Shown here one piece after another: positions 205 to 2,286 of a stretch of DNA of 2,716 nucleotides. The notes beneath the pieces were generated by a model. The model searched no databases, was not told where the DNA came from, and saw only the letters and a program-made list of their open reading frames with translations. Positions within the stretch are counted from its first letter, which is position 1, and each line of letters begins with the position of its first letter. The translations under genes were made by a program, and so were the position numbers. Source of the stretch: Escherichia coli (GTDB lineage: Bacteria > Pseudomonadota > Gammaproteobacteria > Enterobacterales > Enterobacteriaceae); NCBI RefSeq assembly GCF_003334315.1, contig NZ_QOWR01000108.1, one strand, 5' to 3'.

Positions 205-2263
205 CGGCAATACATAGTGCGCAATGCAGCGTGAGTTCGCGCCGTCTCCCCACTGAACCAGTAATTCACCAGACAATGGCGCACCACTTAAATAAACTTG
301 CCCGTCATCACCCACCATACTGGTTATTCCGGTACTGTTTTCCCGTACCAGTGATCCAAACGGCACCGGTTTTCCGCCCTGGGTAACGGTAATGAGCGCC
401 CGCACGCCTATGCGGGTATCAAAATTGGCACGAACCAACGCGCCTTGCGTCGGCACAACGCTGCTAATATTTTTTTCAACATCGATGGAATTCCCCATCG
501 TATTGGTATCAAGCGCGATACGGTTATACCGATAAACCGTGGCATACGGCATCACCGCATAGCCGCGCCAGTCGGTTAAAATGCCAGTTTGATTTTCAAT
601 GCGTACACCGCCTGCGCCAGGTGCTTTAATCAAAACATTGGTATCCCCTAAAGGCTGGCTCAGCGTTATGCCATTTTCATGCCCGACCACACCGCCAGAC
701 AGCTGCCAGTTAACGTCATGTTGATCGCGGTCGTAGTTATACCCGACCCCCAGCGTACCGTAAGCGGCCTGCCAGTTTGCCGTGGCGCTGCCCGTGTACC
801 CATTATTCGAGGTATCACCCTGGCTTACGTGATAACTCAGGTTGTGGCCTTCCAGTAAGGTCCCACCTACACCTGCCAGCCAGCTATTTTGCCCGTTGCT
901 GTTACGGTTGGCGTTAAAGGAGGCATAAGCGCGGTCGAGCGCATTTTCCCGGGTGTAGCGACGTTTGGTCAAAACATTGAAAGGCACTGAAACATTAAGT
1001 CCGACAATACGTTCGTTATCGGGGATCCCTACAGATTCATTCCACGAAAATGAGAGCGAATAACTGATGCCAACCCAGCTGCTGGTATACCCCACCTGAT
1101 ACCACGTATCTGAATCCGAAGTATTCCAGTATTTTTGATGGGTACCAGAGATATAAAGCGAGCCAAAGTCATTAAGTGATTGTGAAATATTTAACTGCAA
1201 ACGGTCTTTACGGCTAAAGCGTAAATTGTGGTAATTCACGATTATCGGTTCATCGCGATGCTCACCGTCGTAATCGTAATCATATTCGTACCCCTCCATT
1301 CGACGATACGCAACATCATCAAGGGTATAAAAACCTTGTGTCGAATAGCGGTAACCCATTAACTGAAAATTGGTGCCGAAGGTGTTCATTGATTTCGCAT
1401 AGAGGAAGCGAATGGAATCCCCCTCATGACGACTGTCGTCGGCTAACTGACTGCGCGCATGCGTTACATCCAGCGACACTGCGCCCCAGTTCCCGAGGTT
1501 GCGCCCCAGCCCTAACAAAAAGGCGGTGTAATTGGCAGATAATTGCGTCCCGCCGTAGGCAGTAAATTCCTGTGGTAAACCACCGAGTGCCGTGCCCTGA
1601 AAAAAGAAAGGTGATGATTGCTGACTATTACCGCTACGAAAATCGCCCGCCGTCAGATCAAATTTGAAACGCCCTTCGCGTTGTAAAATTGGCACTGTTG
1701 AATACGGAATTGTGTAATTCTGCTGATTGCCATCGCGCTCGTCGATGGTGACGTCCAGATCGCCATTTGAAGATGTCGGGTGCAAATCTGTAATTTCAAA
1801 AGCGCCGGGGGAAACATAGCTTTGATAGATAATAAAACCATTTTGCCGAATCGTTAGCTGGGCCGCCGTACGGGCAATCCCACGTACCGTTGGGGCAAAC
1901 CCTTGCTGGCTATCAGGATACATATTATCAGAAGAATAAAGCCGTACACCACGAAATCCAACGCCATCGAAAATATCACTTCCTGTATTGCCGTCTCCCA
2001 TTACCAGTTCACTTTTCAGCGGAATAATGGCGCGCTGTACCCAGGTGCCAATATTATTCCACTGTTCTGAATGATATCCATTTCCGCGAAAATAGTTCCA
2101 GGAACCATTGTTGCGTAAACGCCACGGGCCAATATTAATCCCGCTGAGCTCACTAAAAAAATAGCTATCGTTACCATTACCTCTGTTACCGGTGAAATTA
2201 TAATTCAGGAGTAAAGCAGGAATACCTTCATCCCACTCTTCAGGCGGAATGTAACCGTGAGCG
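205..2263 (-). pseudogene. Outer-membrane fimbrial usher (FimD/PapC family), internal fragment truncated at both ends by IS1; about 686 codons in one open frame
   Basis: The minus-strand translation carries conserved usher blocks: [24 protein letters not shown] (cf. FimD [25 protein letters not shown]), [66 protein letters not shown] (plug region), [23 protein letters not shown]...[56 protein letters not shown] and [33 protein letters not shown]. Composition is Gly/Asn/Tyr/Ser/Thr-rich, typical of a beta-barrel. There is no native start codon, signal peptide or N-terminal domain at the 5' side and no native stop at the 3' side; both ends abut IS1 termini. The specific usher paralog cannot be assigned without a search. 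Confidence 0.9.
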
Positions 2264-2286
2264 GGTAATGACTCCAACTTATTGAT
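2264..2286. repeat. IS1 terminal inverted repeat (IRR, 23 bp)
   Basis: 2264-2286 reads GGTAATGACTCCAACTTATTGAT, the canonical IS1 IRR terminus. It is followed directly by the reverse complement of the insB stop codon (tta at 2279-2281). Confidence 0.9.

Follow-up and report, generated by a model that had tools for sequence, protein, structure and literature searches.

An sfmD usher fragment between two IS1 copies in Escherichia coli and its probable origin by simple IS1 insertion

The stretch of Escherichia coli DNA analysed here, 2716 bases at its full length and called the window below, carries a long piece of a fimbrial usher gene that begins directly at the end of an IS1 element. In the initial annotation, IS1 was held to have replaced the usher signal peptide and N-terminal domain. 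This raises the question whether the 5' part of the gene is gone or still lies on the far side of a simple insertion, and whether the remaining piece could give rise to a product. IS1 elements are 768 bp long, are bounded by imperfect terminal inverted repeats of about 23 bp, encode insA and insB', and generate a 9-bp target-site duplication. Here, we follow both ends of the usher fragment through finished and draft genomes and weigh the different readings of its origin.

The usher fragment and the position of the cut

Read in the gene sense, on the minus strand, the window runs from the 3' end of an IS1 through an internal fragment of sfmD into the 5' start of a second IS1, and both IS1 pieces lie in direct orientation, the same as that of the usher gene (Table 1). 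The upstream piece encodes the C-terminal part of InsB, with the insB stop at 2279-2281, and is recognized by the NCBIfam profile transpos_IS1 (E 4.4e-37; 127.9 bits against a cut-off of 100), and translation of the second piece gives the InsA N-terminus (149..3) from a GTG start at 149. Both transposase frames are present, each of them partial owing to the window ends. The right terminal repeat, IRR, has a single exact match in the window and no match in any of the dinucleotide-preserving shuffles of the window, and it agrees with the left repeat, IRL (204-182), at 18 of 23 positions; together they provide the terminal repeats of IS1 (GGTGATGCTGCC... and GGTAATGACTCC...). The earlier placement of the IS1 terminus at 2264 was exact, with IS1 running on to 2716 and sfmD resuming at 2263. 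The interval of 2255-2286 given for the junction holds for 2264-2286, which is IRR, and fails for 2255-2263, which is the sfmD copy of the target duplication and not IS1.

Table 1. Features of the window, with their positions and the basis of each assignment.
Feature	Position	Strand	Basis
Second IS1, 5' portion (IS1 nt 1-204)	1..204	-	0 mismatches to CP53 IS1 nt 1-204; cut by the window end
IRL of the second IS1	182..204	-	Agrees with IRR at 18/23 positions
Mechanical chimeric ORF, 699 aa	178..2277	-	IS1 IRR, sfmD fragment and downstream IS1 IRL
sfmD internal fragment, nt 489-2547 of 2610	205..2263	-	0 mismatches to intact sfmD
Target-site duplication, right-hand copy, CGCTCACGG (sfmD nt 489-497)	2255..2263	-	Comparison with CP53
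IS1 right terminal inverted repeat IRR, 23 bp, GGTAATGACTCCAACTTATTGAT, read outside in	2264..2286	+	Exact match
IS1 3' portion (IS1 nt 316-768)	2264..2716	-	452/453 identical to the IS1A copy of CP53; cut by the window end

The 2059 bases of the fragment run from the third base of codon 163 through codon 849 of the intact 869-aa SfmD, and they hold the beta-barrel with its plug and most of the C-terminal domains; signal peptide, N-terminal domain and the final 20 codons are absent. Identity of the fragment is 100% in all 25 listed complete E. coli genomes, and the fragment has a match in 4149 of 5426 genomes, with a median of one place per genome and a single copy in nearly all of them. DNA-identical alleles sit in the sfm operon of complete genomes, in which the intact locus has the order folD, sfmA sfmC sfmD sfmH sfmF, fimZ and then tRNA-Arg, and the window's own flanks are IS1 only. 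As judged from these matches, the gene can be assigned to sfmD, the usher of the cryptic sfm chaperone-usher operon and a paralog of FimD, and it should be kept in mind that the annotation pipeline labels several genes of the sfm locus fimA, fimC, and fimH.

The longest frame across the fragment (699 aa, Table 1) starts in IS1, to which its codons 1-4 belong; codon 5 is a hybrid of two IS1 bases and one sfmD base, and residue 6 is A164 of SfmD, so that adding 158 to an ORF residue number gives the number in SfmD. This agrees with the earlier statement that everything upstream of about codon 5 is IS1 sequence. The native usher residues start with A164-H165, two residues ahead of the motif GYIPPEEW. 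In the alignment with FimD, ORF residue 5 falls on residue 123 of the mature numbering, which is 168 in an 879-residue FimD chain, and the start of the fragment at SfmD residue 164 accordingly lies at about mature residue 123 of FimD. The alignment to FimD structures (E 3.6e-223) is end-to-end over FimD residues 123-822, and 3ohn_A, a crystallised construct of the FimD barrel, sets in at ORF residue 6. Alignment to full-length ushers had been proposed as a check, and the NCBIfam FimD profile is likewise entered at position 155 of 860. The NCBIfam match to NF011745 reaches 1539 bits, the cut-off being 975. The Pfam Usher domain (PF00577) is matched with E 2.8e-222 over model positions 5-549 of 549 and PapC_C (PF13953) over positions 1-65 of 66. 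PapC_N is present with model positions 122-145 of 146 only, about 83% of the domain being gone; in intact SfmD it extends over model positions 1-145 (residues 38-187). The structure alignments and the profile matches therefore place the cut where the periplasmic N-terminal domain gives way to the beta-barrel. The earlier statement that the piece begins well over 100 residues into the usher, past the signal peptide and the N-terminal domain, is thus borne out. Since a signal peptide and a full PapC_N are missing, the fragment is a piece of a gene and not a functional usher family member, and because intact 869-aa SfmD alleles are DNA-identical over the fragment, an unusually short usher family can be dismissed. 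An in-frame continuation upstream, the other escape that had been considered, is excluded in the window, where IS1 sequence directly precedes the fragment.

The insertion in relatives and the fate of the 5' piece

In strain CP53, the locus leads from sfmD nt 1-497 through an IS1 of 768 bp to sfmD from nt 489 on, and CGCTCACGG, a single copy in intact sfmD, flanks the element on both sides (L002 5324-5332 and 6101-6109). A 1568-base query spanning the insertion found the whole of it as one contiguous match in 18 complete E. coli records, which include 15 of the 15 single-piece junction matches listed, each with sfmD nt 1-497 directly upstream of the full 768-bp IS1. At the left end, the 5' piece of sfmD joins IRL as ...TTGAGTAGCGCTCACGG followed by GGTGATGCTGCC. 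The upstream stub consists of SfmD 1-165 plus GVMLPTY from the left end of IS1, 172 aa in total, and contains the signal peptide and the N-terminal domain; this product is recorded on 224 contigs. With the 9-bp duplication in place and the 5' piece intact across IS1, these relatives show an IS1 insertion of the standard kind, a simple event that split the gene. The 18 complete records, with the 5' piece across the element and the duplicated site, speak against the view that IS1 "replaces" the 5' part of the usher gene. The displaced 5' part, which the initial annotation had recommended to look for, is found 768 bp further upstream in each of the finished relatives that were examined.

The sfmD allele of the window is identical to the CP53-type allele with the simple insertion. 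Both copies of the 9-bp duplication and the 768 bp between them are seen in CP53, and the window shows just the right-hand copy; because the window breaks off within each of its IS1 copies, the 5' piece of its own sfmD lies outside the view. From the relatives we infer that this piece is very likely still retained beside IS1 in the window's own genome. The alternative of a true replacement, with the 5' part of sfmD and perhaps sfmA and sfmC deleted by an IS1-mediated adjacent deletion or by IS1-IS1 recombination, is unlikely. In its favour, IS1-driven secondary rearrangements are frequent at the sfm locus, so the stub could be lost or moved in this genome, IS1-associated deletions are common there, and a group of matches (H144-H151) covers query positions 205-1568 only, with part of upstream sfmD missing beside a different IS1 allele. 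It is opposed by the listed single-piece IRR-junction matches, 15 of 15 of which keep both the 5' piece and the target duplication, by the wide spread of the stub product over its 224 contigs, and by the direction of the secondary deletions beside this particular IS1, all of which run downstream from the IRR end and none upstream.

The downstream states of the CP53-type IS1 are diverse. The target duplication is intact in L002, L010, L014, and L016; L011 carries a 1-nt indel. Other loci show a further deletion into sfmD, of 37 bp in L008 and of about 740 bp in L012, or have lost everything up to fimZ (L001 7180), leaving the stub, IS1 and a fimZ remnant or envY (L009, L013, and L017), and in L015, following an inversion, two inverted IS1 copies enclose sfmC together with the sfmD stub. 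The secondary IS1-associated rearrangements of L008, L009, L012, L013, L015, and L017 all start from one and the same insertion and lie downstream of the IS1 at locus position 10498.

The same place in the gene has been hit in Shigella flexneri. In S. flexneri 2a 301 (AE005674.2, L020 6470-7270; also L019), an IS1 is joined to sfmD nt 496/497 and has its other end in fimZ, and this element runs in the opposite direction and has diverged by about 9% (69/768 mismatches). The S. flexneri insertion is most likely independent, so that no fewer than two separate IS1 events would have hit the 9-bp site; this suggests independent reuse of the site, which is possibly an IS1 hot spot. Repeated use of a single 9-bp site by different IS1 copies adds a modest observation on the target preference of the element. 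It is very improbable that, all in one, the site between N-terminal domain and barrel is a true hot spot hit by different IS1 variants (direct in E. coli, inverted in S. flexneri) and that the secretable 172-aa stub has been kept as a periplasmic decoy, binding chaperone:subunit complexes and modulating other fimbriae. For S. flexneri 2457T, sfmD has been listed among the pseudogenes (PMC6854044).

Further inactivated alleles were seen. In L023 (6480-6573; GCA_002549285.1), the junction of sfmD with IRL has three instead of four G, giving a stub of 166 rather than 172 aa on a contig that ends in IS1; this could reflect a different insertion register, an 8-bp duplication, or a homopolymer error. 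The same 166-aa product arises in L021 and L022 (at about 6497-6499), which came up in an exact-protein-sequence look-up, by nonsense mutations in sfmD codon 167 (TAC to TAG and TAC to TAA); these are further independent inactivations of sfmD. Other IS1 alleles, to judge from multi-piece matches, interrupt sfmD about 190 bp upstream of the window's site (H120-H131, including ETEC H10407, NC_017633.1), and beside that more-upstream IS1 part of upstream sfmD is missing in H144-H151, a group including the O89m:H9 strain MIN11 (H51). Taken together, these alleles fit an IS-driven decay of a dispensable fimbrial operon, the steps of which, as seen across a number of E. coli lineages and S. flexneri, include a first and a second insertion, deletion, and inversion.

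The second IS1 and the double arrangement

At its 3' end, the fragment adjoins the second IS1 at sfmD nt 2547 (junction 204/205), whereby the last 20 codons are removed. Among complete genomes, the junction of nt 2547 with IRL is contiguous in just two, C 236-04A (NZ_CP109924.1) and BKQWHE (NZ_CP170298.1). In both genomes the far side of IS1 adjoins fimZ or the region beyond, with different endpoints and no target duplication, and the sfmD tail, sfmH, sfmF, and most or all of fimZ are deleted. By blastn, their sfmD alleles (L003 and L004) differ from that of the window by 24 and 14 substitutions, respectively, plus one gap (1.0-1.3% divergence). One candidate connection was not borne out: L009, L013, and L017 as recombination products of the window's two IS1 copies with an L004-type junction, for the endpoint at L001 7180 is 7 bp off that of L004 (7173) and further from that of L003.

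None of the complete genomes in the collection carries both junctions, which were found with 0 mismatches in three NCBI draft assemblies (GCA_002462895.1, GCA_004380855.1, and GCA_004172665.1), on contigs of 2.3-2.6 kb that each end inside IS1. The identical double-junction contig in three independent drafts indicates that the arrangement is real and belongs to a small lineage.

The sequence of events that best accounts for this arrangement would start with the transposition of a 768-bp IS1 into sfmD at CGCTCACGG (nt 489-497, codons 163-166), in the same orientation as the gene and with duplication of the site. The gene would thereby be split into the 172-aa upstream stub and a downstream piece lacking signal peptide, N-terminal domain, and a usable start, and in the window's lineage a second direct IS1 at sfmD nt 2547 would produce the order IS1, 2059-bp fragment, IS1. 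The junctions at both ends, the domain content, the duplicated site in relatives, and the repeated occurrence of the double arrangement were observed directly, and in our judgement it is highly probable that a simple IS1 insertion split sfmD, that the second IS1 removed the 3' end, and that the gene is a dead pseudogene.

Two other accounts of the double arrangement fare worse than this stepwise one. Composite transposons of the Tn9 type consist of directly repeated IS1 copies that bracket a DNA segment, a description that formally fits the window, and its two IS1 copies might have mobilised the 2059-bp fragment, in which case the window would lie away from the sfm locus. This is highly improbable, given that each junction is separately found at the native sfm locus of complete genomes, that the fragment is single-copy in nearly all genomes, and that the cargo has no obvious selectable function; the plasmid matches, moreover, are chromosome-sized records or a chromosomal segment with cysS, folD, and intact sfmD. 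A mobilised plasmid copy was accordingly rejected, all six of the six plasmid matches being either chromosome-sized or a 128-kb chromosomal segment with intact sfmD. The record in NZ_CP137697.1 (L018; "plasmid" pEcFELIX533.1, 128,814 bp) follows the gene order of the chromosome from ppiB, cysS, and folD through the whole sfm operon to envY and nfrA, has an IS1 close to fimZ, and is probably a chromosomal segment or a mis-assigned replicon. A misjoin of a short-read contig to collapsed IS1 repeats is scarcely credible: the window and all matching contigs are 2.3-2.7 kb long and stop within IS1, a typical picture where assemblies break at repeats, but both junctions are exact and each occurs independently in finished genomes, the two-junction contig recurs in three separate assemblies with 0 mismatches, and the IRR junction carries the correct copy of the target duplication.

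The chimeric frame and comparison with known systems

The 699-aa frame starts with a TTG inside IRR, one base past the insB stop, and at its 3' end the last 20 SfmD residues are swapped for GDAANLLI (8 codons) and a stop from the IRL of the second IS1. No Shine-Dalgarno motif was found ahead of the TTG, the next in-frame ATG is codon 93, and no promoter-like site was found from the end of IS1 to ~180 nt into the sfmD fragment. A check for signal features, suggested earlier, gave a net charge of -1 over the first 12 residues and a best 11-residue hydropathy mean of 0.93, with nothing resembling a signal sequence, unlike intact SfmD, whose N-terminus has a charge of +1, a hydropathy of 1.76, and a typical signal sequence. 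The fragment thus has no credible start codon or ribosome-binding site, and the ORF is probably not translated. RefSeq tags the equivalent sfmD piece in CP53-type genomes as a pseudogene, "incomplete... missing N-terminus".

Chaperone:subunit complexes dock primarily at the usher N-terminal domain (PMC3960871), and without a signal peptide a product of the fragment would not be exported by Sec. The earlier statement that such a product could neither be exported nor initiate pilus assembly is supported by the N-terminal charge, the weak hydrophobic maximum, the missing Shine-Dalgarno motif, and the RefSeq pseudogene tag. In S. flexneri, transcription is reported to run through IS elements into downstream fimbrial genes (PMC6854044), so "not expressed" applies here to protein function and not necessarily to RNA.

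For the IS-disrupted fimD of S. flexneri 2457T, the possibility of a truncated usher has been raised (PMC6854044). The corresponding idea, that an N-terminally truncated usher is made from the sfmD fragment and aids fimbrial secretion, could draw on the transcription reported downstream of IS elements in fimbrial operons (PMC6854044) and on a frame that stays open over 699 codons, but the open frame is the inherited sfmD frame, 100% identical to intact alleles, and therefore uninformative on selection; with a TTG start, no signal peptide, no Shine-Dalgarno motif, no domain for chaperone:subunit recruitment, and 20 C-terminal residues swapped for IS1-derived ones, it is barely conceivable.

Public databases list the ORF product, from 4 short contigs, under TFA80511.1 as a "fimbrial protein [Escherichia coli]" of 699 aa, and this entry falls into a 90%-identity protein cluster with FimH-like adhesins, a sign of heterogeneous clustering. 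The present analysis identifies TFA80511.1 not as a short usher but as a pseudogene fragment, chimeric between IS1 and sfmD. Within the literature library searched, no paper names sfmD together with IS1; the sfmD::IS1 allele is known biology, already annotated as a pseudogene in RefSeq, and the fragment matters little beyond annotation.

Compared with the FimD and PapC ushers, the window fragment shares the Usher barrel and PapC_C domains, but it is the SfmD paralog by the synteny of the sfm locus, a fragment only, and lacks the signal peptide, the N-terminal domain, and the extreme C-terminus. The nearest relatives of the insertion are the alleles of CP53 (NZ_CP033096.1), RCAD0514, TOE3, and 30EVA2, which have the window's junction of IRR with sfmD at nt 489; the CP53-type RefSeq pseudogene alleles are the same as the window in 9-bp duplication, IS1 orientation, and sfmD allele, but these genomes keep sfmD to its native stop, followed by sfmH, sfmF, and fimZ, where the window has the second IS1 at nt 2547. 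Conversely, the alleles of C 236-04A and BKQWHE have the window's junction of nt 2547 with IRL, but their 5' part of sfmD is uninterrupted. In S. flexneri 2a 301 the usher is cut at the window's site and leaves the same stub of signal peptide plus N-terminal domain, but there IS1 is opposite and divergent and no downstream usher fragment is left. As in a Tn9-type composite, two direct IS1 copies surround a segment in the window, but the cargo is an internal gene fragment, each junction occurs alone at the native sfm locus, and there is no sign of movement as a unit.
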